From Bacilli bacterium (GTDB lineage: Bacteria > Bacillota_I > Bacilli_A > RF39 > UBA660), in assembly GCA_017409785.1 (NCBI GenBank), contig JAFQSD010000002.1, forward strand, positions 162,597 through 226,596: a DNA stretch of 64,000 nucleotides, given 5' to 3'. Both the position numbers and the translations under genes were made by a program. Of this stretch, positions 4,281 through 51,995 are shown piece after piece. The notes under the pieces were generated by a model. The model ran no database searches. It saw only the letters and a list, made by a program, of their open reading frames with translations, and was not told the origin of the DNA. Numbering within the stretch: the stretch's first letter is position 1; every line of letters begins with the position of its first letter.

Positions 4281-6044
4281 CTATTCTACAGTAACACTTT
4301 TAGCTAAATTCTTTGGTTTATCAATATCGCATCCTCTAAGTTTTGCAACTTCATATGCAATTAATTGTAAACATGGAACTACAACTAATGGTTGGAAGAA
4401 ATTACTCATTTCAGGAACTTGAATTAAATGATCATAACCAGTAATTTCTTCATTACTAATAATGATACATTTAGCTCCTCTAGCCTTAACTTCTTGTACA
4501 TTAGAAATAGTTTTTTCACGTATATCCTTATCAGTAATAATTGAAATAACTGGAGTACCATCATCAACTAATGAAATAGTACCATGTTTTAATTCTCCTG
4601 CCTGATAAGCTTCACTATGTATATAAGAAACTTCTTTTAATTTTAAACTTCCTTCCATAGAAACAGCATAATCAATCTTTCTACCAATAAAGAAGATATC
4701 TTCACGTTTATAAATGGCTTTAGCAATTTCTAAATAGTCATCTCTTCTATCTAATATTTCTCTTACCATTCTTGGTATTTTTTTAATTTCAGCCATTACA
4801 TTCTTATCATCAAGACCACTACTTAATGCAGCTTTATAAGCAAGAAGTGAAAGAATCGCTACTTGTAACATATAAGCTTTTGTAGTAGCAACTGCAATTT
4901 CTGGTCCGGCTTCTATAAAGATTTGACTACCACTTTCTCTAGCAATAGTTGAACCAACAACATTAACAATAGCAAGTGTTTCAATTCCAGCCATCTTAGC
5001 TTTTCTCATAGCTGCAATTGTATCTGCAGTCTCTCCAGATTGACTAATTAAAATTACTAAAGTCTTTCTATCATAAATAACTTTTTTATAACGGTATTCA
5101 CTAGCAACTTCAACAGTTACTCGTAAATTAGCATTTTCTTCAATTAATGTTTTACCAATCATTCCTGCATACATCGCAGATCCACATGCTACTATATGAA
5201 TTTCTTCATATTCAGTTAAATCTGGTAACTTATCTAAATTATCTACATATGGTTTAAGTGTTTTCTCTAACACAACAGGTTCTTCCATTATTTCTTTCAA
5301 CATATAATGTTCATAACCACATTTATCTTTAGAATCAGCACTTATAGTAGCAGTTAAAATTTCTTTTTTAACTTTCTTACCATTAAGAGTAACTTTAACA
5401 TCTTTATCAATTTCACAAACTTCATTTTCTTCTAATAATGAATATTGATTTGTATAATTAATAATTGCAGCTATATCACTAGCAACATAAATTTCATCAT
5501 CTCCATAACCTACAATAAGTGGAGAATCCTTTCTAACTGCATATAACTTATCACTATCTTCAAAGAAAATACAAAAAGCATAAGAACCTTTTAATTCTTT
5601 AATAGCTTTATTAATAGCTTTAACAGCATCACCTTCATAATACTTATTTATAACAGCACAAGCAACTTCAGTATCTGTTTCACTATTAAATACTACTCCT
5701 TCTTTTAATAATTTTTCTTTTAATTCGCTTGCATTTTCAATAATACCATTGTGTACTAAAGTAACTTTTCCTACTCTATGAGGATGAGCATTCTCTACAC
5801 TAGGTACACCATGAGTAGCCCATCTTGTATGAGCAATACCCATTCTTGCATCAAGTAATTTTTCACTATTAACTTTTTCTTCTAAACAAGAAATTTTTCC
5901 TACACTTCTAATTACCTGAATTTCATTTCCGTCTTTTAAAGCGATTCCCGAAGAATCGTATCCTCTATATTCTAAATTTTTTAACCCCTCTATTAATATT
6001 TCTTTTGGTTGTTGTTTTCCTTTATATCCAACAATTCCACACAT
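4281..6044 (-). CDS. glmS: Glutamine--fructose-6-phosphate aminotransferase (isomerising).
   Basis: The N-terminal MCGIVGY carries the Ntn-hydrolase Cys. The protein has two SIS domains and ends in the canonical …AKSVTVE. Length is 587 aa. Confidence 0.97.
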   Translation of the reverse strand: MCGIVGYKGKQQPKEILIEGLKNLEYRGYDSSGIALKDGNEIQVIRSVGKISCLEEKVNSEKLLDARMGIAHTRWATHGVPSVENAHPHRVGKVTLVHNGIIENASELKEKLLKEGVVFNSETDTEVACAVINKYYEGDAVKAINKAIKELKGSYAFCIFFEDSDKLYAVRKDSPLIVGYGDDEIYVASDIAAIINYTNQYSLLEENEVCEIDKDVKVTLNGKKVKKEILTATISADSKDKCGYEHYMLKEIMEEPVVLEKTLKPYVDNLDKLPDLTEYEEIHIVACGSAMYAGMIGKTLIEENANLRVTVEVASEYRYKKVIYDRKTLVILISQSGETADTIAAMRKAKMAGIETLAIVNVVGSTIARESGSQIFIEAGPEIAVATTKAYMLQVAILSLLAYKAALSSGLDDKNVMAEIKKIPRMVREILDRRDDYLEIAKAIYKREDIFFIGRKIDYAVSMEGSLKLKEVSYIHSEAYQAGELKHGTISLVDDGTPVISIITDKDIREKTISNVQEVKARGAKCIIISNEEITGYDHLIQVPEMSNFFQPLVVVPCLQLIAYEVAKLRGCDIDKPKNLAKSVTVE

Positions 6045-29704: not shown

Positions 29705-30889
29705 CTATTCAAAAACAAATTTATCTTCTTTTTCATTTTTCTTTTTTGTATTTTTCTTAGTTTTCTTTTTACTAGGATCTTTTTCTTCTTTATAAATTTT
29801 CTTAATACAAATATTAGGTTTATTGTCATCAAAATTAAATGTGTGGAATGAATCTCCTCCACAATATTTCCAATGACTACAACTTAAACATTCTTTACAA
29901 GAAGTTCTTCTTTCGTGTCTAAACTCTTTAAATTTATTTTCCCATACTTCAACAAAACTATCATTATTAATATTTCCTTGAATTAATTCTGGTCTTCTTT
30001 CAACATTAGGGCATACAAAAATGTCCCCATTACTTAAAATACTTCCTACGTAAAGACCTGTCATACAGAAGAAATAATGACTACGTAATTCTTTCTCAGT
30101 ATTAAGACCTAAATAATGACTACAACCATAATCAACTACTATTTTTCCTTCATTTCTCTTTTCATAAATAAATTTAAATAAGTCTCTATATCCTTTTGGA
30201 TCAAGTAAAATTTCATCATTATTTTTAGCTCTACCAATCGGATCACAGTTAACAACTCTCCAATATTTAACTCCAAGTTCTTGAACAATTTTATATAATT
30301 CTTCTAACTCATGCATATTCTTTTTATTAGCAACTGTTGTTACTTGAACACATTGAATACTTGGTTCTTTAAGCATTAACTTAATACCTTTAATAATCTT
30401 TTCCCAAGCACCAGGTACTTTTCTAAAAGACTCATGGGTTTCTTTCAACCCATCAATACTAATAGATATTGTACTCATTTTAGACTTAACTAATTTTTTA
30501 ACTAACTTTTCATCTATTAAAATACCATTAGAAGTTATTCCCCAATGAAAACCTAAACTTACAGCATAATCCATAATTTCAAATAAATCTTTTCTTAAAA
30601 ATGGTTCTCCACCAGTAACATTTAATAAGATTTTTGAAGCATCATAATGATCAGCTACTTCTTTTAAAGTTTCCATTAATTTTTCTTTACTAATTTCATT
30701 TTTAGGTTTTTCATATCCACAACTACTACCACAGTGTTCACATCTAGCATTACATCTAGAAGTAACTTCTAAAAACAAATGACGTAACTGTGGCTTATCA
30801 TATAAACTTTTTCTATATTCAAACAATTCTTCCATGTTTTCTTTTCTAATTTCTTTTAATTCATCGCTTGCTTTTGATACTACTGCCAT
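29705..30889 (-). CDS. Radical SAM / SPASM-domain enzyme (peptide- or protein-modifying maturase type).
   Basis: CNARCEHC is a CxxxCxxC motif and TGGEPFL is a SAM-binding motif. The C-terminal Cys-rich SPASM region is present (CMTGLYVGSILSNGDIFVCPN…CKECLSCSHWKYCGGD). Confidence 0.85.
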   Translation of the reverse strand: MAVVSKASDELKEIRKENMEELFEYRKSLYDKPQLRHLFLEVTSRCNARCEHCGSSCGYEKPKNEISKEKLMETLKEVADHYDASKILLNVTGGEPFLRKDLFEIMDYAVSLGFHWGITSNGILIDEKLVKKLVKSKMSTISISIDGLKETHESFRKVPGAWEKIIKGIKLMLKEPSIQCVQVTTVANKKNMHELEELYKIVQELGVKYWRVVNCDPIGRAKNNDEILLDPKGYRDLFKFIYEKRNEGKIVVDYGCSHYLGLNTEKELRSHYFFCMTGLYVGSILSNGDIFVCPNVERRPELIQGNINNDSFVEVWENKFKEFRHERRTSCKECLSCSHWKYCGGDSFHTFNFDDNKPNICIKKIYKEEKDPSKKKTKKNTKKKNEKEDKFVFE

Positions 30890-40749: not shown

Positions 40750-42012
40750 ATGAAAGAAAATAAAATTTATAAACAGTTAACCAACGTCGACATAGAAACT
40801 CAAAAACAATTATGGAATGACAGAGGAAAAGGCTATTACGGCGAATACTTAGTTTTCTGCGAATTATATAAGCACTTATCAGGAATGGGAAAAATATTAA
40901 TGAATATAAACATTCCAATAGAAAACAATAAAACAACAGAAATAGATCTATTATTAATTCATGAAACAGGTATATATGTTTTTGAAACGAAACACTATAA
41001 AGGTACAATTTATGGAAGAGATACAGATGCATTTTGGACACAATTTTTTAGAACTACAAAAAATGCACATTTTAAAAATCCAATATTACAAAATAGATAT
41101 CATATAAATGCATTAAGAAAAATGTTTCCAACACCACCCATCTATTCAATCATTGTCTTTACAAATGATGATTGTGTCGTAAAAGCTACTTTCGATACTA
41201 GAATCAATGATGTATGTACTCTTAATGACTTACCTAGAATTCTAAGAAATAGATTTAACAATAAACAATATTTTTTACCAGAACAAATTGATTATATTTT
41301 CTCAACTTTATCTCAATACTCTCCAATGCAAGAACCAGTATTAATTGATACTGAAGAGAAAGACTTCCTTACATGGATTCAACCAACAATTAACAATTTA
41401 AAAATCAAAAAACAAGAACTAGAAACTGAAAAACAAACACTAAAAATATTAGAAAAAGAATATAACCGAAATAAATTTATCTGTACTATAGGGACTGTAC
41501 TATTTGCAATATTATGCTTAGTTACACTGTATACATTAACAACAGCTAATAAAAATAATTATGAAAAAGAATTGAATAAATTTAAACAAAATTTTCAACA
41601 TGTAGATGAAATAGATGATGAATATATAAAATCATCTGAATACTATATAAAAGTGTCAAACCAAAAACTTAATAATTTAGAAAATAACACAGTAAGCTTT
41701 CAAGCAACTTTGTCCGCTAATACTGATGAATATGGTATTGTACTTAAAGAAAATACAAAATACATTGTAATGACTACATCAGGTAAAGCTTATGAATATG
41801 ATATGTTTGGAGCACATCTAAATTACAACAGATCAAATAATACAATTTTCAAAAAAACAAAAGCATCTGGCGAACTAAAACAAATAATATTTAAAGACAT
41901 TAATGTTGATGAAATCACATATATAAAAATAACAAACGTTGAACTATTTATATCTAATCCATATTATGAAAAAACAAAAGATGATTTTGAAATAGAATTA
42001 TATAAAAAATAA
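40750..42012 (+). CDS. NERD (nuclease-related domain) protein with a central TM helix and a C-terminal domain of unknown function.
   Basis: YYGEYLVFCELYK…EIDLLLIHETGIYVFETKHYKG matches the NERD core. It has a TM helix (FICTIGTVLFAILCLVTLY) and a TATAAT-like -10 element upstream. Confidence 0.65.
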   Translation: MKENKIYKQLTNVDIETQKQLWNDRGKGYYGEYLVFCELYKHLSGMGKILMNINIPIENNKTTEIDLLLIHETGIYVFETKHYKGTIYGRDTDAFWTQFFRTTKNAHFKNPILQNRYHINALRKMFPTPPIYSIIVFTNDDCVVKATFDTRINDVCTLNDLPRILRNRFNNKQYFLPEQIDYIFSTLSQYSPMQEPVLIDTEEKDFLTWIQPTINNLKIKKQELETEKQTLKILEKEYNRNKFICTIGTVLFAILCLVTLYTLTTANKNNYEKELNKFKQNFQHVDEIDDEYIKSSEYYIKVSNQKLNNLENNTVSFQATLSANTDEYGIVLKENTKYIVMTTSGKAYEYDMFGAHLNYNRSNNTIFKKTKASGELKQIIFKDINVDEITYIKITNVELFISNPYYEKTKDDFEIELYKK

Positions 42013-42639: not shown

Positions 42640-42700
42640 GAAGTACTAGGATGGTTAATTGTAGTTGTTAAACTTGTACCGTAGTTATATATTAAATGTA
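42640..42700. repeat. Copy 3 (degenerate) of the conserved intergenic element CTAG…TTGTACCNTAGTTA.
   Basis: aagtaCTAGgatggttaattgtagttgttaaaCTTGTACCgTAGTTAtat compared with CTAGTTAGAGATATCATTGTA…TTGTACCCTAGTTA at 45666-45710. Confidence 0.5.
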
Positions 42701-42758: not shown

Positions 42759-44678
42759 TTACAAATTATTTTCATCAATAAAATCAGATAATAAAATTAT
42801 CAATTTTCTAAATTCAGCCGGCATATTAATAAAAATTTCTTTTTGCTCCTCCCAAGAAACATTTTTTATAAAATTATCAAAATAAACAGCAAGAGATGCT
42901 TTATTAGATGACCAAATGTTTTTACAATATTTATGAGCTTCGAACATATCCGATTTCAATTTTTTTTCAAATAAGCATAAGCTCATCTTTTCAACAAAAT
43001 CCAATTGTGAATATTCTGTTGTTTTATAACTTGGGTATAAACCATCAAAAAAATTTAAAAAAGCCCTTTTAATAGCTGCTGGACGTGAATTAAAATTTTC
43101 TTCATAATACTTTCTTAAAATAAATGGCGGAATAATATTTTCAATTGTCTTAATATTTTTACACACAAAACTTCTTTTGCCCATAATATCCATAACACAC
43201 TTTATCTTTTTCCAATTAGCATTTTCATGATTAAGGTTATCAGAATCAAAAATAATAAAATTATTCTTTGATAACTTATTAAGTTTTACAGCAGGATCAT
43301 CAGTATTTAAATAATCAAATTTATATGCAATATTTATACTACCATTAAATGCATAGTTATAATTATAACCTAGAATAACCTGTTTTTTGTGTTTTATTCT
43401 ACGATAAATATTTAACAAGCTATCTATATAATATATATCTGTAGGTCCTTCTACCCATATTGTACAATTGGATAAAATAATAGATGATGCTCTTTGACCC
43501 AATAGCTGATATAAATTCATATTATCATATATAGAGTTATAAGCAATCTTTTGCGTATCATTTTTATCAACACAAATAATTGCCGTATCAGCGTCGTATT
43601 CATCACATATATCAATCATACTAGAAGAATGTGTTGAAATAAAAATTTGACAATTTTTATATTCTTGTAACTGAGAAACCAATAATCTTTGTAAACCTGG
43701 ATGCAAGTGAATTTCTGGTTCATCAATAAAGATTTTCAACGGACTATCATTATTCATAAATAGGTAAAAGGTGATTGTAATTAATGTTTGTAATCCATCA
43801 CCCAAATTATAAATAGCATATGGCTCTTCATTTGATTCCTTAATATAAATATTAGAATCATCATCTTTTATAAAAATACTTATATCCTTTCCATTGAAAA
43901 AATGATTTGCCACAAATTCTTCATACATAAGAAAACGTTCTCTATCTTTATTTAATCCTAATAACAGTTTTTTCATATCATGATATACTTCTTGTCCTGT
44001 CTTTATTTCTAATGCGCTTAAATTAGGTGAAAAAAAATACTCATTTCTAAACATATTTGACAAACTAACATGATAATCATTACCTTCCGCCCCTAGTTTT
44101 CTCAAACTTAATAAAGAAGGTACAAAAATTGTTTTAGGTGTTTCTATCGTCATTGTATTAATAATAGACTCATATACAATTCTTAAATGTTCTTGTTTAG
44201 TTCTAAGTTCGGCTGTATCATTTAAATATCGAATCGAATCATTTTTCGAAAAAGAATAAGGTGATTTAATTATTTTTTTTGTTTGACAAAGTCCATACAA
44301 ATTACTAGCTCTAAAAGAATATACAAGATTGCAAATAAACAAAGCCAACATTTCTTCATCACGTTCATCCCTATATACTTTTTCTCTTATATTTTCATTA
44401 TACAAATATACTTTTTTAAATTCATTCTTAGAACTTTCATTAAAATAGTTTAATAAATCTACAATAGTCTCTTTAAGTTCTTTAAAAAGAGCGCCATCAC
44501 TAACATAATATTTTTTATCAAATTCACTAGTTAACACTTTTCTCATTAATCTACTTTTTCCACTATTATTTTTTCCAATAAAAACATTCATTTTCTCCAA
44601 ATATAATTTCTTTTCTTCATTTAAAGACACATATTCACTATAATTCGAATCAAGTAAATCAATATATTTTATATACAT
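42759..44678 (-). CDS. OLD-family ATP-dependent endonuclease (fused ABC-type ATPase and Toprim). It may be a class 1 OLD or a fused PARIS (AriA-AriB)-like protein.
   Basis: The ATPase motifs are Walker A GKNNSGKS, signature-like LGDGLQ, Walker B/D-loop KIFIDEPEIHLHP and H-loop ISTHS. The Toprim motifs are IWVEGPTD and IIFDSDN. Confidence 0.75.
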   Translation of the reverse strand: MYIKYIDLLDSNYSEYVSLNEEKKLYLEKMNVFIGKNNSGKSRLMRKVLTSEFDKKYYVSDGALFKELKETIVDLLNYFNESSKNEFKKVYLYNENIREKVYRDERDEEMLALFICNLVYSFRASNLYGLCQTKKIIKSPYSFSKNDSIRYLNDTAELRTKQEHLRIVYESIINTMTIETPKTIFVPSLLSLRKLGAEGNDYHVSLSNMFRNEYFFSPNLSALEIKTGQEVYHDMKKLLLGLNKDRERFLMYEEFVANHFFNGKDISIFIKDDDSNIYIKESNEEPYAIYNLGDGLQTLITITFYLFMNNDSPLKIFIDEPEIHLHPGLQRLLVSQLQEYKNCQIFISTHSSSMIDICDEYDADTAIICVDKNDTQKIAYNSIYDNMNLYQLLGQRASSIILSNCTIWVEGPTDIYYIDSLLNIYRRIKHKKQVILGYNYNYAFNGSINIAYKFDYLNTDDPAVKLNKLSKNNFIIFDSDNLNHENANWKKIKCVMDIMGKRSFVCKNIKTIENIIPPFILRKYYEENFNSRPAAIKRAFLNFFDGLYPSYKTTEYSQLDFVEKMSLCLFEKKLKSDMFEAHKYCKNIWSSNKASLAVYFDNFIKNVSWEEQKEIFINMPAEFRKLIILLSDFIDENNL

Positions 44679-44916: not shown

Positions 44917-45594
44917 CTAAAAAGGCAACTCATCATCATCCGCATCAGCATCACTAAAGAAGTTCGGATTCTCTCTTTGTAACTTCTTAACTAGTTGAGT
45001 CATCTCAGTCTCAGTAGCTTGTATTACTCTATCATTAATAGGACCTACTTGATTTGCTATAGCAACCATTTCTTCTTCAGTATATCCTCTACCTTCATAA
45101 CATCTTAAGATGTTATCACAAAGTACATTTCTCATAGCCATACTATTATCATAGAAACTTCTTCCAGCATCATCCATTAAAAATACTTTATAAGCTTCTA
45201 TTCTTCTCTTAACATCATCTATTTCTGCTTGTTCCTCATCCTTACCAAGAACTACTTCCTCTGGAATAATACGAGATACTCCATAAGGCATACTTCCCAT
45301 AAGACCTATAACTTCAAATTCTCCTTGGTATCCAACTTCACTCTTATTACCATGGAATACAAATGGACTACTAAAACTAGTTGGAGTCCATTTAAATAAC
45401 TCAATAACCTTACCAGGATGATATACACCAAATACAAATCTATCTTCTTGATAAGAACTACTTACATCTTTAACAACACCTTCAAACCATCCATCATCTT
45501 CTAATAATATCTTACCTTCCCACATATCTCTATCATTAAATTGATATTCATAAGAAGAATCAAAATAACCTTTAATATCAAATAATTTACTCAT
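44917..45594 (-). CDS. Hypothetical protein with an SSB-like acidic C-terminal tip (…DADADDDELPF).
   Basis: No catalytic motif. The last residues DDDELPF resemble the SSB C-terminal DDDIPF interaction tip. Confidence 0.45.
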   Translation of the reverse strand: MSKLFDIKGYFDSSYEYQFNDRDMWEGKILLEDDGWFEGVVKDVSSSYQEDRFVFGVYHPGKVIELFKWTPTSFSSPFVFHGNKSEVGYQGEFEVIGLMGSMPYGVSRIIPEEVVLGKDEEQAEIDDVKRRIEAYKVFLMDDAGRSFYDNSMAMRNVLCDNILRCYEGRGYTEEEMVAIANQVGPINDRVIQATETEMTQLVKKLQRENPNFFSDADADDDELPF

Positions 45595-45661: not shown

Positions 45662-45725
45662 AGGGCTAGTTAGAGATATCATTGTATATAGTATATTTGT
45701 ACCCTAGTTAAAAGTTACCTAACCA
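45662..45725. repeat. Copy 1 of the conserved intergenic element CTAGTTAGRGATATCATT-N14/15-TTGTACCCTAGTTA-N4/5-TTACYTAAC.
   Basis: ggCTAGTTAGaGATATCATTgtatatagtatatTTGTACCCTAGTTAaaagTTACcTAAC, near-identical to 50611-50669. Confidence 0.6.
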
Positions 45726-45741
45726 GAATCGCACTACAAAA

Positions 45742-47079
45742 CTATTTCTGCTGAGTAATATAAGTATCAATTTCGTCAGAAAATTTAGATAACATTTTTA
45801 TATAATTTTCATAATCAGATTTATCACCTAAAATTCTTGGTGACAATTCTAAATAACTAAATATAGTTCCATTATCTATTCTGGTTTTAAATTCTGAATA
45901 ATACTGCAAAAGAGACTTTTTCTCGATAAACTTATATAAAGAAATATTCTCAACTATTTTACCACTTTTTTGGACACCATTTAATTTTTCATATTTTACA
46001 ATTTCATCATATGAAGAAATATTATAAGGCAATATATATTTACAATCTAAACTATTTTTTAAAGAACTACAAATAGAAATTTGTCTTAAAATACAGGCGG
46101 TACATATTCCACAATGACAAACACCAGATTTTTCTCTATTCTGAAATCCCTTAGAACCCGGCATTTTTGAACAAGTTTTTGAATTTTTTAATAAATCTAT
46201 CCATTCATTAGGAATTAAATCAATAACTTCCGCCTTTGTCATAAAACAAAAAGGATTAATAACTGTAATATTTATTCCTACAGTTTTTAAAATATCATTA
46301 ATATAAAATAAAGTTCTTGGATGAGTAGTTTTAGTTACTTTTCTTCTAAACTCAAATGTAGGATTTAAAGACATAATTCCATTTTCATATATTTTTATTA
46401 TAGGCACTTCATAATAATCAGCATATAACAAAGCAGACCCCAAAAAAATTAGTGAGCGAGTTCTTTGCGTAGAATGCTTCTTTATAGCAAATTGTTTTTT
46501 TTCTACAATAACATGTTCTGAATTTGGACTACTTTTTTTAATAACATCAAATGTCTTTTTTGCTTTGCTTACCTCAGGATCATTAGTTGCATAAGTAACA
46601 TATAAAGTATTATTATTTAGTTCTTGTGAAGCACCTGCCATAGCATCTAAACCACCAGATAATAATGCTACGCTATTAAATTCACTTTTAAATAACCCCA
46701 ACTGTTTCATATTTATATCTAAATGCTTTTTTTCTGTTTGCTTAAACTTAATTTCCCAGTTTTCTCCATTTGTCATAAATCTTATTAAATTTGAAAGTTT
46801 GTCCTCAATCAATTTCATGATTTCAATATTAACAACCTCAACTTCAACTTCAATAGTTTTATAACTATCTTCATTTCTTTTATTATAAAAGTCAATATAA
46901 CAAATAGAAGCAAAAGTATCAAACAAATCAAGTATAAGCGTATTATCATATCGAACAATATCTAATGAATTCTTATCATCATAATGAACTTCACACGGGA
47001 ATTTTTTACTTAAGTCAAAAAAAGATTTAATCATATAGAAATTCCTTTCAAAATAAGTGGAATATGTTCCGTCATCCAC
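45742..47079 (-). CDS. QueC-like PP-loop ATPase (7-cyano-7-deazaguanine synthase-like) with an extra ~140-aa N-terminal domain.
   Basis: VALLSGGLDAMAG is the PP-loop SGGxDS motif. The zinc cysteines are CHCGICTAC…C. It is 445 aa, versus ~220 aa for housekeeping QueC. Confidence 0.7.
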   Translation of the reverse strand: MDDGTYSTYFERNFYMIKSFFDLSKKFPCEVHYDDKNSLDIVRYDNTLILDLFDTFASICYIDFYNKRNEDSYKTIEVEVEVVNIEIMKLIEDKLSNLIRFMTNGENWEIKFKQTEKKHLDINMKQLGLFKSEFNSVALLSGGLDAMAGASQELNNNTLYVTYATNDPEVSKAKKTFDVIKKSSPNSEHVIVEKKQFAIKKHSTQRTRSLIFLGSALLYADYYEVPIIKIYENGIMSLNPTFEFRRKVTKTTHPRTLFYINDILKTVGINITVINPFCFMTKAEVIDLIPNEWIDLLKNSKTCSKMPGSKGFQNREKSGVCHCGICTACILRQISICSSLKNSLDCKYILPYNISSYDEIVKYEKLNGVQKSGKIVENISLYKFIEKKSLLQYYSEFKTRIDNGTIFSYLELSPRILGDKSDYENYIKMLSKFSDEIDTYITQQK

Positions 47080-47687
47080 CCTTCAACATAATTCTCATTA
47101 CCTATATTTAAAACCAATTTATCATAAGCATTTTGAGATATAATTGAATTGGTAATTATCTCAGTAACTGAATTTATTTTTGAATAAATATCTTCATCAG
47201 AAATAGTCTCATATTTTTCTGACAACATTTCAAAAATTGTTCCCTCTATTTTATGTTCAACATAAATAGATATAATCTTTTTAAACATCATAAATCCATT
47301 AGCAAAAGTACCATCAATTCCATTTTCTAATAAAATATCTTTTATAGTTTGCTTTAAAATTGGATCTTCATAATCAACAAAATAATCTGCAATTAGGTCT
47401 ACTTGTTCATTAAAACTATATGAGTCAAATTCTGAAATACCAAATGACAAGGTACCAGATGAAACATAGTTTTCGCTAGTTCTAATTACTTTTTTTATAG
47501 TTCTAATAAAATTAGGACTAGAAAGTGATTTAATTATATGATTTGAAGTATAACTTTCTCGATTATTAGGATATAATAAGGAACCCAGTAATTTCTTTAA
47601 ATCATGAGTATTTATATTAGATGAAGAATTAAGTTCCTCTATTTTTTTCTTAAGTCTTGGAAGTGTATTTCTAGTAGATGTACCCAT
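47031..47687 (-). CDS. Hypothetical protein, operon partner of the QueC-like gene (49-nt overlap).
   Basis: No recognisable motif. It is co-directional and overlapping. Confidence 0.4.
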   Translation of the reverse strand: MGTSTRNTLPRLKKKIEELNSSSNINTHDLKKLLGSLLYPNNRESYTSNHIIKSLSSPNFIRTIKKVIRTSENYVSSGTLSFGISEFDSYSFNEQVDLIADYFVDYEDPILKQTIKDILLENGIDGTFANGFMMFKKIISIYVEHKIEGTIFEMLSEKYETISDEDIYSKINSVTEIITNSIISQNAYDKLVLNIGNENYVEGWMTEHIPLILKGISI

Positions 47688-47769
47688 ATTATCACCTCAT
47701 TTAGCAGATATAATAACATATTTTTTAATTTTTTCAAATATATGGTAAAATAATTGTGGTGATGTACTT

Positions 47770-48756
47770 ATGTTTTGTCATACTATTTCAAAAACATATT
47801 TAGAAAAATGGAAAATAAAAGATAAAAAAGATAGTATATATGTATTTAACAAAAATAATTTATCAAACCAAGGAGAAATAAGAGACTTAACTAATTTAAC
47901 AAAAACAGAATTAGGATATACAAACTATTATTACTTAAAAATTGAAGATTGTGATCATAAAATTTTTGATAATATGTTTCAGGATTTAATAGATGAAATC
48001 AACAAACAATATATATTAAAATTCAACAAATTAGAAATAAAAACAGCTACTCAGTTTAGATTAGCTTATTTAAAACATGAAGACAAATTAAAAATATATA
48101 GGCGCGATAATAATGTAGAAATAAAACTTTCAAGAATAAATAAATTAATTCTAGATAGTTGGAATATATCTAAAAAAAGATATATTGAAGACTTTTTTTC
48201 AAAAGAAATAGAAAATGATTGGCAAAAAGTTGTAAATGAATTTGAAACAATAATTAAAACAAAAGCAAAATTATCAAAATTTGCAAGAGAAAAACTAATT
48301 TTATTTATAGCTACACAAATAAACCGTAATCATAAAAAGCACAACGAAAAGATCAAAATAACACAAAATGACGAAATACTAAAAAAAATACTCATAGTAT
48401 CAATTTACGAATTTATCAAAATATATAATCACGAACAAGAAGACAATAATGACAATTACATATTCGAAACATATAAACAATTAAAAAAAACAAATTTACA
48501 TATTACCATACTACATACAGAATCCTCGTTTATTACTACGGACAATCCAATAATTACTTACAAGCATAACCATAAAGATAGTATACTTATCCCAATAACA
48601 CCAAATATCTGTTTAATTATACAAAATAGTTTAATAGAAAGTCTTTCTATTAAAAAAATTAATAGTATAGAAACAAAAAAAATAAATAATGAATTAATAA
48701 ACAATGCCATAAACAACATAGTATACTTTGATAAAATAATTACTGAGCTTTATTGA
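47770..48756 (+). CDS. DUF4238 domain protein.
   Basis: The N-terminus CHTISKTYLEKWK matches the DUF4238 HxxxxxYLxxF/W signature. Confidence 0.55.
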   Translation: MFCHTISKTYLEKWKIKDKKDSIYVFNKNNLSNQGEIRDLTNLTKTELGYTNYYYLKIEDCDHKIFDNMFQDLIDEINKQYILKFNKLEIKTATQFRLAYLKHEDKLKIYRRDNNVEIKLSRINKLILDSWNISKKRYIEDFFSKEIENDWQKVVNEFETIIKTKAKLSKFAREKLILFIATQINRNHKKHNEKIKITQNDEILKKILIVSIYEFIKIYNHEQEDNNDNYIFETYKQLKKTNLHITILHTESSFITTDNPIITYKHNHKDSILIPITPNICLIIQNSLIESLSIKKINSIETKKINNELINNAINNIVYFDKIITELY

Positions 48757-48769
48757 ATTTATAGTAAAG

Positions 48770-48796
48770 AAAAAGAAAAGCAAATTGCTTTTCTTT
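48770..48796. terminator. Bidirectional terminator.
   Basis: Hairpin aaagaaaagcaaattgcttttcttt. Confidence 0.55.
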
Positions 48797-48856
48797 TTAC
48801 ACTTACAATTTTAATAAATGATTAAAACAGAATAATATTCTATTAACAACGCACTT

Positions 48857-50320
48857 CTAATAAGCAATCTCTAGAAGTTTTTTTGAAACTCTTGCTTGAA
48901 CTTTTGCATAATACGCTGCTTCTACAGAATTTAAACTATCATCTTCCCACTTTTCAAAAGATTTAACTGCCTTTGCATATTTGCTCATGTATGTACCATA
49001 ATCTTTTAGCAATTCAACATCAGTACCATCAGACTTAGAATATTTCTCCATAAAACTAATATACTCATTCATAAATTCTTCATAATTGTCCATAGCTTCC
49101 TTAAACTCTTTTCTCATACCATCTACCATATTAGAAGAATTTTCATTTTTAGTTTCTTTTTTAGACTCTTTTTCAGGAATGACATCTTCGTCATCTTCAT
49201 CATAATCTTCTGGAACATTTAATGCAATTTCAATAACATTTGCACCAGAATATCTTACTGTTAGTTTATAACCATCTTTATTTTCTGCGGAATAATATTT
49301 TTTATCTTTACTATAATCAACCATGAATCCCTTATCTTCACAATCCTCTACATAATCACTATAGTCATCAATAGTCATATTTCCAATATATACAATAAAT
49401 GTTTCACTATTATTCCAAGAAATATTTCCTAAGTTTGATTTTGGCTTAGGGAGTTTACTACCAAGTCCACTCTTTGGCCATTCAATTTCTTCCATTTTTT
49501 TAGGAGCTTCCAAAGTAATATCCATTGTTTTTCCATCTTCATCATAATCACTAAATAAAATTCTAATTGAATATCCTTCTTTATTAAATGCACCATATAC
49601 ATCATCCCATTCTTCATATTCAAGATCTATTGTATACCCAGCAGCAATTACTTTATTAACATAAGTTTTATACTCTTTTTTTGTAATATCATAAATCTCA
49701 ATAGATAACATATCTTTGCTATCAACACTAATTACTCCATACAACTTATCTGGTACTGGAAAATAATCTATTAATTCTACATCAGAAACATCTAATTTAG
49801 TTGGTTTTTCATTATATGACGTAGTATCTCCATTTGTAGTAATTATAGGTATAATAAGTACAAAACCTAAAATAGCTAAAATTATTTTTAATCCTTTAAA
49901 TGGTTCCTTTAAAATCTTCATTCCCATTAACCAAGCACTTATAAATGCTATTGCTTGAATTAAAGTTAAAAATTTTGTTAAAAATCCAGTACATACAAAG
50001 AAAAATAAAACTGCTATTGCAAAGAATACTAATAATACTTTACTAAACTTCCCCTTTTTAAAATTTTCAACCGAATTTAATTCTTCTTTTACTTTCTTTT
50101 CTTTTACTTCTTGTTCTAAAATATCATTTCTTTCTTTTAATGCTTGTTCGTGATTATCTTTACGAGCCTTTAATTTGGCATCCTCTACTCTTTTAATTTT
50201 TGTTGCCTCATCATCTATTAGTATCTCAGCACCACAATAATTACATGTTATTTTTTCTAGATTTTTGTTTGCATCTAAAGTAGCACCACAATTTTCACAT
50301 TTCAATTTTACTAATTTCAT
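48857..50320 (-). CDS. Membrane protein with two N-terminal zinc ribbons, two to three TM helices and an acidic C-terminal domain.
   Basis: CENCG…CNYCG is a double CxxC. The TM helices are LLVFFAIAVLFFFVCTGFL and IILAILGFVLIIPIIT. Confidence 0.5.
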   Translation of the reverse strand: MKLVKLKCENCGATLDANKNLEKITCNYCGAEILIDDEATKIKRVEDAKLKARKDNHEQALKERNDILEQEVKEKKVKEELNSVENFKKGKFSKVLLVFFAIAVLFFFVCTGFLTKFLTLIQAIAFISAWLMGMKILKEPFKGLKIILAILGFVLIIPIITTNGDTTSYNEKPTKLDVSDVELIDYFPVPDKLYGVISVDSKDMLSIEIYDITKKEYKTYVNKVIAAGYTIDLEYEEWDDVYGAFNKEGYSIRILFSDYDEDGKTMDITLEAPKKMEEIEWPKSGLGSKLPKPKSNLGNISWNNSETFIVYIGNMTIDDYSDYVEDCEDKGFMVDYSKDKKYYSAENKDGYKLTVRYSGANVIEIALNVPEDYDEDDEDVIPEKESKKETKNENSSNMVDGMRKEFKEAMDNYEEFMNEYISFMEKYSKSDGTDVELLKDYGTYMSKYAKAVKSFEKWEDDSLNSVEAAYYAKVQARVSKKLLEIAY

Positions 50321-50605: not shown

Positions 50606-50672
50606 GGGAACTAGTTAGGGATATCATTTTAAAAGTTACAATTGTACCCTAGTTAGTAAATTACTTAACTAT
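50606..50672. repeat. Copy 2 of the CTAGTTAG…TTGTACCCTAGTTA…TTACYTAAC element.
   Basis: aaCTAGTTAGgGATATCATTttaaaagttacaatTGTACCCTAGTTAgtaaaTTACtTAAC. Confidence 0.6.
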
Positions 50673-50717: not shown

Positions 50718-51995
50718 ATGAAACTTAGAATTGGAGAAATATTCAGATTATCAAACGATTATAGTACAGATACACAAGAATTTATTGATGGAGTTAAAAA
50801 TTTTATATATTATACAAAATCAAAAAACATTGAATCAACATTCAGATTTGAAAGAGGAATACATAAAACCAAAAAGATCGATGCTATTGATTTTGATAGA
50901 AACCCTATAATAATAGTATCAAGCTCTCCACACAAAGCTGGAACAGATAATACACCATGGAAAGACAGATATGATCCAGATAACGGAACAGTAATATACT
51001 ATGGTGATTGTAAAAGTAATGAAACAAATCCAGCGGATGCAAGTGGAAATAAAATATTAATGAAAGAATGGGAAAATCATAGTTCAAATGATACAAAAAA
51101 AAGAGAAAAGGCAACTCCTATCGTTTTTTTTGAAAGAATAAAAATGGGATACTTACAATTTCATGGTATTGGAGTATTAGAAAAAGTAAGTCTTATTACA
51201 CAAAAAGGAAAAGAAAATGAATTTACTAATTTTGAATTTGAGTTCTGCATATTAGACTTATCAAGAGAAAATAATTTACTTGATTGGGAATGGATATCTG
51301 ATAGATGTGATAAAGAGAAAAATATTACTGAAGCAAACCAAAAAGCTCCTAATTCATGGAAATATTGGATAAAAAATGGTAACGATAAAATTGAAAAAAT
51401 AAGAAGACATGTTTTAAAATCTAAAATAGTAAAAGAAAAAGAGCAAAAAATTCCTAATGGTTCTTTTGAAGAAAAAATATTAAAAAAAATTGAAAATCAT
51501 TATAAAGGAAAAGAACTAAAATTCGAATTGTTCGCATTACAGATAACGCAATTCTTTTTCGCAGATAATAATATCAAATATTTAGATGGATACATTACAA
51601 AAGGCTCAGGAGATAAAGGAATAGATTTTATATCTAGAATTGATATTGGACAAGATATTTCAGGAATAAAATTAATTGTAATCGGACAAGCAAAATGCCA
51701 AAATAGTACTATTAGTAGCAAAGATATAGCAAGAACTATTGCAAAATTAAAAAGAAACTATGTAGGAGTATTTGTGACCAATTCGACGTTTTCACAACAA
51801 ACACAAGAAGAAATCCTGGAAGATCAATATCCATTAATTATGATAAACGGAAAGAAAATAGCAGAATTAACAAATAAATATATTCTTGGTAGTTCTAAAG
51901 ATTTAAATAAACTACAAGAGTATCTCAATAATCTTGACGTACAATATGAAACATATAAAAGTAATATTAGACCAGATGATATAATATATAAATAA
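50718..51995 (+). CDS. Mrr-catalytic-domain restriction endonuclease with an N-terminal ~250-aa putative modified-DNA sensor domain (type IV-like).
   Basis: The C-terminus GDKGIDFISRIDIG…LIVIGQAKCQ…GVFVTNSTFS matches the Mrr_cat PD-(D/E)XK pattern (GxxGxD…GQxK). The N-terminal domain is uncharacterised. Confidence 0.6.
   Translation: MKLRIGEIFRLSNDYSTDTQEFIDGVKNFIYYTKSKNIESTFRFERGIHKTKKIDAIDFDRNPIIIVSSSPHKAGTDNTPWKDRYDPDNGTVIYYGDCKSNETNPADASGNKILMKEWENHSSNDTKKREKATPIVFFERIKMGYLQFHGIGVLEKVSLITQKGKENEFTNFEFEFCILDLSRENNLLDWEWISDRCDKEKNITEANQKAPNSWKYWIKNGNDKIEKIRRHVLKSKIVKEKEQKIPNGSFEEKILKKIENHYKGKELKFELFALQITQFFFADNNIKYLDGYITKGSGDKGIDFISRIDIGQDISGIKLIVIGQAKCQNSTISSKDIARTIAKLKRNYVGVFVTNSTFSQQTQEEILEDQYPLIMINGKKIAELTNKYILGSSKDLNKLQEYLNNLDVQYETYKSNIRPDDIIYK

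Follow-up and report, generated by a model that had tools for sequence, protein, structure and literature searches.

Does a QueC-like PP-loop ATPase that is encoded together with an overlapping partner gene serve housekeeping queuosine synthesis, or does it belong to an anti-phage system, and if so to which one? This question is raised by a locus on contig JAFQSD010000002.1 of the Bacilli bacterium assembly GCA_017409785.1, which we studied within a stretch of 64 kb (positions 162,597 to 226,596 of the forward strand), referred to here as the window and numbered from its first letter. A preliminary description of this DNA had proposed a minimal or new QueC-like defence module, made up of an enlarged enzyme and a partner of unknown function. 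Our analyses suggest that the locus is probably an anti-phage module of the Qat type that retains only the catalytic core, QatB and QatC, and is joined to a different third gene, which encodes a DUF4238 protein. The features on which the argument rests are given below (nt, nucleotides; aa, amino acids).

45742-47034, minus strand: qatC-like gene (430 aa, ATG at 47034), a QueC-family PP-loop ATPase with QatC-type N- and C-terminal extension domains
46093-46173, minus strand: zinc site C288-(x19)-C308-G-x-C311-x-x-C314, read from the translation as the cluster C..(x19)..CHCGICTAC
46318-46338, minus strand: VTKTTHP, QatC-specific threonines followed by the conserved HP, read from the translation
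46642-46659, minus strand: PP-loop SGGLDA, residues 126-131, read from the translation
47031-47034, minus strand: ATGA stop/start overlap of qatB and qatC, read from the sequence
47031-47687, minus strand: qatB-like gene (218 aa), encoding an all-alpha-helical domain behind an N-terminal MGTS tail
47688-47769, no strand: divergent promoter spacer of 82 nt between qatB and the DUF4238 gene, from a spacer alignment and a promoter scan
47770-48756, plus strand: DUF4238 gene (328 aa), divergent from qatBC, from its PF14022 match
48770-48798, no strand: palindromic terminator-like hairpin directly 3' of the DUF4238 stop codon, which is the end of the module on this side

The enzyme is of the QatC type

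The two genes had been described as overlapping open reading frames (ORFs), the first of them carrying an SGGLDA PP-loop, and translation of the minus-strand ORFs 45742-47079 (445 aa, GTG start) and 47031-47687 (218 aa) confirmed this. The length given for the enzyme has to be corrected, as it is almost certainly 430 aa instead of 445 aa: nearly all of its homologues among 120 listed are 427-433 aa long, one that is 98% identical has 430 aa, the family alignment of qatC products begins at MIKS, which corresponds to the ATG at 47034, and this start produces an ATGA overlap with the stop codon of the partner gene. The true overlap of qatB and qatC is therefore 4 nt, and the apparent overlap of 49 nt is an artefact of ORF calling. 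The same end-to-start arrangement appears in gene-caller output for relatives, and the ATGA overlap indicates that translation of the two genes is coupled.

We found that the 430-aa enzyme is recognised by the NCBIfam QatC model NF041925 (E 2.5e-45, 155 bits) and by the PADLOC QatC model (E 1.8e-38), as would be expected for the defence-type QueC relative of the QatC kind that had been suspected. The Pfam QueC family PF06508 scored 15.7 bits, under its cut-off of 22, TIGR00364 QueC gave no match, and a phmmer search of the Protein Data Bank (PDB) returned crystallised QatC only (9vlk_A/9zee_B, E ~1e-16). Because 155 bits fall below the NCBI equivalog cut-off of 280 bits, we assign the enzyme to a divergent QatC subfamily. 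Its AlphaFold2 model, with a predicted local distance difference test (pLDDT) value of 88.3, superimposes over 433 columns on the P. aeruginosa QatC 9y02_B (427 residues), with a template modelling (TM) score of 0.67 and an E-value of 2e-15, at an identity to crystallised QatC of ~18-19% over the fold alignment. The next structural match was Cap9, which covers the core only (TMq 0.29), and other PP-loop enzymes likewise match in the core only. Hence the N-terminal extension of 140 aa, which had been noted as a special trait of this protein, is present but is the normal QatC N-terminal domain, a domain common to all QatC proteins (PMC13279940); the C-terminal helical extension is present too.

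The residues known from QatC are also retained, as we found in an alignment of 20 QatC-like proteins (numbering of the 430-aa form). In the PP-loop, S126, G128 and D130 are invariant and the last position is S or A: canonical QatC carries a serine here (SGGxDS), in contrast to the alanine of our enzyme and several homologues. This serine contacts the ATP phosphates in QatC, and an S156A/S161A double mutant is dead (PMC13279940). The stretch VTKTTHP aligns in phmmer with sTRTTHP (strTTHP) of crystallised QatC (9vlk/9zee); T236 and T237 are invariant, T234 is at least 90% conserved, and these threonines are equivalent to T278/T280 of P. aeruginosa QatC and T276/T278 of E. coli QatC, where Thr-x-Thr replaces the Tyr/Asp that recognise 7-carboxy-7-deazaguanine (CDG) in QueC and Cap9 (PMC13329287, PMC13279940). 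The Cys4-type zinc site that had been placed in CHCGICTAC is real, but only three cysteines of this string are invariant and the fourth is the upstream C288. All four (C288, C308, C311, C314) are invariant in the alignment and G309 is also kept, as in the QatC motif C(x)19CGxCxxC (PMC13329287) and the P. aeruginosa site C334/C354/C357/C360 (PMC13279940). Likewise, RTRSLxF (R191/R193/F197), ENG (E217-N-G219) and P(x)4TK (NPFCFMTK) are kept, and RxRxxxF/Y, ExG and P(x)4TK all belong to the published QatC motif list (Libby et al., PMC13329287; Gao et al., PMC13279940).

These comparisons bear on a simpler explanation of the locus, namely that the enzyme is a housekeeping or DNA-modifying QueC, which supplies preQ0 for queuosine or a Dpd-type modification, or the Cap9 of a type IV cyclic oligonucleotide-based anti-phage signalling system (CBASS). 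The enzyme does belong to the QueC superfamily, with its PP-loop and zinc site, and in PHROGs a related family bears the label 'QueC-like queuosine biosynthesis'. Yet QueC models fail to reach threshold or to match at all, the CDG-recognising Tyr/Asp pair is replaced by Thr-x-Thr as in QatC, the full-length structural match is QatC and Cap9 matches in the core only, and canonical QatC is unable to complement a queC deletion (PMC13329287). Moreover, among the neighbouring genes we recognised no TGT/DpdA, CD-NTase, queD, queE or queF. A housekeeping queC next to queD and queE is likewise not what we see: a second PP-loop protein or queC, queD and queE were not recognised within the 64-kb window, which was the scope of this search, the rest of the genome lying outside it. 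We therefore consider a QueC or Cap9 function most improbable; the enzyme is of the QatC type and not a housekeeping QueC.

As a side observation, two unannotated Listeria phage records, OR848142.1 (1695-2543) and OR846725.1 (22949-23797), encode a QatC-like protein that is 33% identical over residues 122-428, which suggests that Firmicute Qat-type cores can be phage- or prophage-borne.

The partner is a short QatB-like protein

The 218-aa partner can now be given an identity. Its N-terminus reads MGTSTR (47676-47687, minus strand), and MGTS is the highly conserved and essential N-terminus of QatB, in which a G2D mutant is dead (PMC13279940). A scan with a QatC profile recovered 37 genome loci and, once over-extended ORF starts had been trimmed, an MG[TS]S protein was encoded directly upstream of the qatC-like gene in 35/35 loci with a readable upstream gene; the other two have an unclustered 306-aa gene upstream (L036) or begin inside qatC (L037). 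The partner thus does co-occur with the QueC-like gene, as the preliminary description had suggested checking. In a comparison of 43 members of the QatB-like family, G2 never varies, and the conservation of M1 and S4 is 90% or more. The AlphaFold2 model of the 218-aa protein (pLDDT 86.6) is all-helical, and a Foldseek search of the PDB placed QatB from the QatBC crystal structures in the top two positions (9y01_A/9y02_A, prob 1.00, TM 0.53), with all non-QatB matches at a TM score of 0.26 or below. In this model ~26 residues with pLDDT 50-76 precede the first confidently packed helix and include Pro10 and Arg6 but no Trp, whereas the flexible tail of canonical QatB measures 30-90 aa and has conserved Pro16/Trp18.

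Pfam has no match to the 218-aa protein, and hhalign of its family against a bona fide Vagococcus QatB aligned the first 17 residues only (prob 1.9%). As a control, this Vagococcus QatB, which lies in a plasmid QatABCD operon (PGAP context), matches PDB QatB at 2.4e-12, so the sequence method works for canonical QatB. Clustering of 1.84 billion proteins at 50% leaves the short family with 58 representatives, each of ~200-228 aa. We conclude that the 218-aa protein is QatB-like, since it has the tail motif, position, partner and fold in common with QatB but not the sequence of the domain, and it is presumably the protein substrate and partner of QatC. That the tail is kept while the globular domain diverges suggests that the constraint lies on the N-terminal tail.

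A DUF4238 gene is inherited together with qatBC

The gene upstream of qatB, in divergent orientation, encodes a protein that matches Pfam PF14022 (DUF4238) over profile positions 3-278 of 281 (E 2.1e-20, 73.7 bits, cut-off 27); PADLOC and NCBIfam gave no match to it, and a profile search of the PDB with DUF4238 returned nothing. A divergent DUF4238 gene adjoins qatB in L001-L007, L038-L043 and L046-L056, the last group being three further QatC lineages on long contigs. The adjacency thus extends over about ten lineages and at least eight different flanking contexts, which include the following:

L001: type III-like restriction-modification genes
L040: type I restriction-modification, PIN, NUDIX
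L046: DpnII restriction-modification, AIPR
L050: Metallophos, AAA_14, SLFN-helicase
L054: McrBC, NERD

In the reverse direction, a small test in which a metagenome scan with the DUF4238 profile returned five loci, 3/3 informative metagenome loci carry qatBC (L041-L043). Pairwise identities of DUF4238 proteins follow those of QatC (Mantel r 0.94) and of QatB (r 0.91; both p 0.0002, eight lineages), and both correlations hold down to ~30% identity. The spacer between the DUF4238 gene and qatB measures 74-82 nt in 13 loci and, in a 10-locus alignment, contains two invariant extended -10 boxes, one directed toward each gene and each followed by a ribosome-binding site (RBS): TGnTATTAT toward qatB and ATTATAnCA (TGnTATAAT on the other strand) toward DUF4238. 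A promoter scan of the spacer in the window found TTGAAA-16-TATTAT with TG at 47737-47710.

On the basis of the fixed position across different flanks, the co-divergence, the fixed spacer with its two invariant -10 boxes and the monophyly of this type in the QatC tree (see below), we conclude that qatB, qatC and the DUF4238 gene are inherited as one unit. DUF4238, which in this clade is genomically always paired with qatBC, is the one neighbour that is conserved with it, and we infer that it may act together with QatBC.

The third gene appears to have been exchanged between sister clades

The wider set of loci places this unit in an evolutionary context. In a neighbour-joining tree of QatC, the DUF4238 type is monophyletic and sister to a type with a different third gene, which we call c5; both are nested within loci that carry a TatD gene:

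L016 and L018-L035: QatB-QatC-TatD, third gene downstream on the same strand, QatD-like TatD (NF041926, E 1.6e-62)
L008-L015 and L017: QatB-QatC-c5, third gene directly downstream of qatC on the same strand, for example L011:11271-11888

The three types of third gene never occur together in one locus, and QatA occurs in none. The c5 protein (202-211 aa, referred to below as the 205-aa protein) has no Pfam or NCBIfam match, but 9/9 members contain an R-[NH]-[DE]-x-F-H (R-x4-H) motif that, at the level of the motif only, seems to resemble that of HEPN RNases. Comparison of DUF4238, c5, TatD and the 225-aa protein encoded downstream of qatC in the window by hhalign revealed no remote homology (probabilities all <2%). 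A Fic-domain protein (c9) recurs nearby in four c5 loci.

The Firmicute TatD and c5 loci resemble the window locus in their short QatB of the MG[TS]S family, in their QatC subfamily and in the lack of QatA, and differ from it in that the third gene lies downstream on the same strand and not upstream in divergent orientation. The relatives come from metagenome-assembled genomes of low-GC (guanine plus cytosine) gut Bacilli and Clostridia. Read along the tree, the third gene has probably been exchanged at least twice, from TatD to c5 and then to DUF4238. An entire branch of the Qat systems in low-GC Firmicutes lacks QatA and keeps the MG[TS]S tail and the QatC active site, while the globular domain of the partner has diverged beyond sequence recognition. 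A QatA-less branch with exchanged third genes supports a core-plus-accessory model, in which DUF4238 and the c5 protein are candidate downstream partners of QatBC.

How QatBC and DUF4238 may act

Published work on QatBC and Cap9 offers a mechanism for the core of this module; the role of DUF4238 in what follows is drawn from genomics only. The systems of E. coli and P. aeruginosa contain a 1:1 QatB-QatC complex in which the tail of QatB occupies the active site of QatC, and mutants of the PP-loop, of Thr-x-Thr and of G2 abolish defence. QatB also binds QatD, and for the E. coli system the peptide GTSKAY from the N-terminus of QatB, carrying the NDG modification, was detected by liquid chromatography-tandem mass spectrometry. 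By analogy, the initiator Met1 of the window's QatB would be removed and Gly2 would then head a flexible tail that threads into the PP-loop active site of QatC. QatC would use ATP to activate (adenylate) a carboxylate, which would be that of CDG in the current model or, given the Thr substitutions, that of another compound, and would couple the activated group to the Gly2 amine of QatB. The modified QatB or the QatBC complex would then restrict the phage, and DUF4238 could serve as an accessory or effector arm with modified QatB, in place of the TatD (QatD) or the 205-aa protein found elsewhere.

Taken further, QatBC could be a portable protein-tagging switch that is wired to unrelated outputs (TatD/QatD, the 205-aa R-x4-H protein or DUF4238), with DUF4238 controlled by, or acting through, N-terminally modified QatB. 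We put this forward as a tentative model. If it is true, two poorly understood defence systems would be connected, and the modified QatB tail would be a common signal for interchangeable effectors. Three structural papers of 2026 describe QatB-QatC as the essential Qat core and leave unsaid how modified QatB restricts phage and what QatA and QatD do (PMC13279940, PMC13376578, PMC13639016); the present locus, together with its relatives, amounts to a natural experiment on the read-out of QatB and on the part that QatA and QatD play.

The main competitor of these ideas is that two independent systems, a self-sufficient qatBC and an autonomous DUF4238, travel together and are linked by selection for co-transfer or by a shared promoter region. 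DUF4238 alone is a validated anti-T7 defence gene in E. coli, from a P2-prophage hotspot (Rousset et al., 2022; PMC9122126), and is listed as a stand-alone system in surveys, and QatBC alone is sufficient against lambda-vir (PMC13279940). The two are divergently transcribed, and the surrounding island is dense, so that unrelated systems abut. However, linkage by chance or at the level of the island does not predict co-divergence down to ~30% identity or a fixed spacer of 74-82 nt in which both promoters are conserved. It also sits poorly with a triad that survives at least eight flank contexts and with the mutually exclusive, clade-specific replacement of TatD or c5 by DUF4238. We regard independence as rather unlikely, though it deserves to be taken seriously; were it correct, the locus would be an ordinary one, a QatBC-only system adjoining another defence gene.

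Several points weigh against the view that we prefer, a Qat-type core joined to DUF4238. DUF4238 lies on the opposite strand, outside the qatBC operon, and DUF4238 and QatBC, each active alone against T7 and lambda-vir, respectively, could each work on their own. In islands, defence genes that are independent of one another are often tightly linked. On the side of the enzyme, the QatC score is far under the equivalog cut-off (155 versus 280 bits), and the last residue of the PP-loop is Ala instead of the usual QatC Ser, which contacts the ATP phosphates. The fold match of the partner to QatB is moderate (TM 0.53, Foldseek E 0.05), and neither phmmer nor profiles of 20 and 43 sequences nor hhalign could detect any similarity in sequence between its globular domain and canonical QatB/DUF5610, the two being connected by the fold search only. 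Neither queD nor queE, which serve the supply of CDG, was recognised in the 64-kb window. Finally, QatC chemistry itself is unsettled, as the CDG-binding Tyr/Asp are replaced by Thr and the activity has not been reconstituted in vitro (PMC13279940).

Neighbouring genes and island context

The locus is part of a defence island, whose genes around the module are the following:

40750-42012, plus strand: NERD nuclease
42759-44678, minus strand: AAA_15/AAA_21 ATPase (639 aa), OLD/AriA/GajA-like, two genes downstream of qatC
44917-45594, minus strand: unannotated 225-aa gene directly downstream of qatC
48857-50320: DUF6591 gene, encoding a zinc-ribbon/transmembrane/DUF6591 protein
50718-51995, plus strand: AspBHI_N and Mrr_cat restriction endonuclease of the modification-dependent type

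The absence of the canonical partners had been noted from the sequence, and we agree: QatA (KAP NTPase), QatD (TatD), TGT/DpdA, CD-NTase and Cap10 are not found among the neighbours. The two genes downstream of qatC could be taken for functional analogues of QatD (the 225-aa protein) and QatA (the 639-aa ATPase) within a larger Qat-like operon. They lie directly downstream on the same strand, and the ATPase resembles the defence ATPases AriA, Old and GajA. In addition, a metagenomic relative (L038), whose three module proteins are 96-98% identical to those of the window, has an NTPase of the KAP family, the Pfam family of QatA, at the position of the ATPase (L038:5791-8628).

Most of the evidence points the other way. 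No homologue of either protein occurs in any of the 37 genome loci, and the family of the 639-aa ATPase is not that of QatA. Nucleotide synteny between the window and L038 covers DUF4238, qatB, qatC and the 225-aa gene, ends exactly after the 225-aa gene and, on the DUF4238 side, at 48761. The 945-aa KAP NTPase of L038 is not homologous to the ATPase of the window; it is not identified as QatA by NCBIfam or BLAST and resembles bona fide QatA only around a stretch of 38 residues. Furthermore, the 225-aa protein is only 62% identical to its counterpart (L038:4970-5641), compared with 96-98% for the triad, and its gene has its own promoter-like element, an extended -10 downstream of the first copy of a repeat described below. 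The idea that the 225-aa gene and the AAA ATPase stand in functionally for QatD and QatA is thus largely refuted by their lack of homologues in the 37 loci and by their divergence or replacement in L038, and we judge a larger operon of this kind to be very unlikely. The 225-aa protein precedes an AAA ATPase in the window and a KAP NTPase in L038, and it may be a small NTPase adaptor or simply a variable island gene.

On the other side of the module, an insertion relative to L038 (48762-50449), which contains the DUF6591 gene, separates DUF4238 from the upstream repeat. We count the DUF6591 gene, like the 225-aa gene and the AAA ATPase, among the island genes that have no relation to the module. 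Conversely, most of a 180-aa gene of L038 is deleted in the window between ~50587 and 50607. Together, the insertion and the deletion imply that the island is rearranging at this spot.

Over the window as a whole the GC content is 21-31%, the GC skew is strongly negative (-0.2 to -0.6) along nearly all of the 64 kb, and the minus strand carries almost all of the genes; negative skew with minus-strand genes is the typical lagging-orientation view of a low-GC Firmicute replichore. Local reversals of the skew coincide with the plus-strand genes at 50718-51995 and 40750-42012. No tRNA genes were found in the window. A plus-strand trio at 232-2827 comprises genes for a 360-aa radical SAM protein, for a protein of 182 aa whose AIG1 GTPase-like match is weak and for an unannotated protein of 297 aa, and a second radical SAM/SPASM protein is encoded at 29705-30889.

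A flanking repeat

The enzyme and its partner had been described as sitting between two copies of a conserved repeat, and three copies are present in the window:

45666-45710, minus strand: copy 1, situated 32 nt 3' of the qatC stop, with the extended -10 of the 225-aa gene downstream of it
50611-50655, minus strand: copy 2, beyond the DUF6591 gene
42643-42687: copy 3, degenerate

The repeat is real: copies 1 and 2 are 82% identical over 45 nt, extendable to ~69 nt, and a 14-mer taken from the repeat occurs four times with at most two mismatches, against 0.57 expected, a count that 0/100 shuffles reached. Its sequence on the gene strand is TAACTAGGGTACAATTGTAAC...AATGATATCYCTAACTAG, after which come TGnTATAAT and an RBS, and its core is the near-palindromic GTACAATTGTA, with direct repeats of TAACTAG at its flanks. 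Downstream of every copy are the extended -10 and RBS of a defence-island gene. What does not hold is that the repeat is a property of the module, as it brackets four genes (qatC, qatB, DUF4238 and DUF6591) and is lineage-specific: L038 has copies at 1098-1142 and 4838-4904, but nothing comparable surrounds the triad in other lineages that carry the module. Rfam has no family for it, the sole match being a sub-threshold snoRNA artefact. Copy 1 is a boundary of the module in this lineage only and coincides with the point at which protein identity to L038 falls from 96-98% (triad) to 62% (225-aa gene). We considered the repeat as the boundary of a mobile cassette or as a known RNA and rejected both, given its three window copies, its absence from other lineages and the lack of an Rfam family. 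It looks like a lineage-specific intergenic promoter- or operator-like element that does not define the module, and a shared regulator could use it as its operator.

Comparison with known systems

Compared with the QatABCD system (Gao et al., 2020), the window locus shares the QatBC core seen in the structures 9y01/9y02, 9vlk/9vll and 9zee/9zef: the enzyme has the N- and C-terminal QatC extensions, Thr-x-Thr, the zinc site and the other motifs, and the partner is encoded directly upstream, with MGTS at its start and a helical domain that, among PDB structures, matches QatB best; a defence island surrounds the pair. It differs in that QatA (KAP NTPase) and QatD (TatD) are lacking, that the conserved third component is a divergent DUF4238 and that QatB has 218 aa, compared with ~240-290 aa in canonical systems. 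The proposal of a minimal or new QueC-like module consequently survives in one respect, the absence of QatA and QatD. The module is not new as stated, because the QatBC core is already known and published, nor is it quite minimal, because DUF4238 is stably inherited with it. Absent from the literature that we searched are the fixed triad of DUF4238 and qatBC, the Firmicute branch without QatA, the family of short QatB proteins that diverge in sequence and the clade-wise exchange of the third gene.

With the lone DUF4238 system (PMC9122126) the window locus has in common the full-length PF14022 match (328 aa) and the setting in a defence island. Unlike the lone system, DUF4238 stands here in a fixed divergent linkage with qatBC, across a shared promoter spacer, and diverges together with it.

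Lastly, in the Cap9-CD-NTase pair of type IV CBASS (9nto) a QueC-fold enzyme likewise takes the N-terminal Met-Gly tail of its protein substrate into the active site. Cap9, a minimal QueC, measures ~185 aa, compared with 430 aa for our enzyme, keeps the Tyr/Asp CDG site and is accompanied by a CD-NTase partner and the TGT-like Cap10, none of which is seen at the window locus. Despite these differences, the Cap9-CD-NTase pair provides the mechanistic template for the proposed modification of Gly2, N-terminal deazaguanylation.

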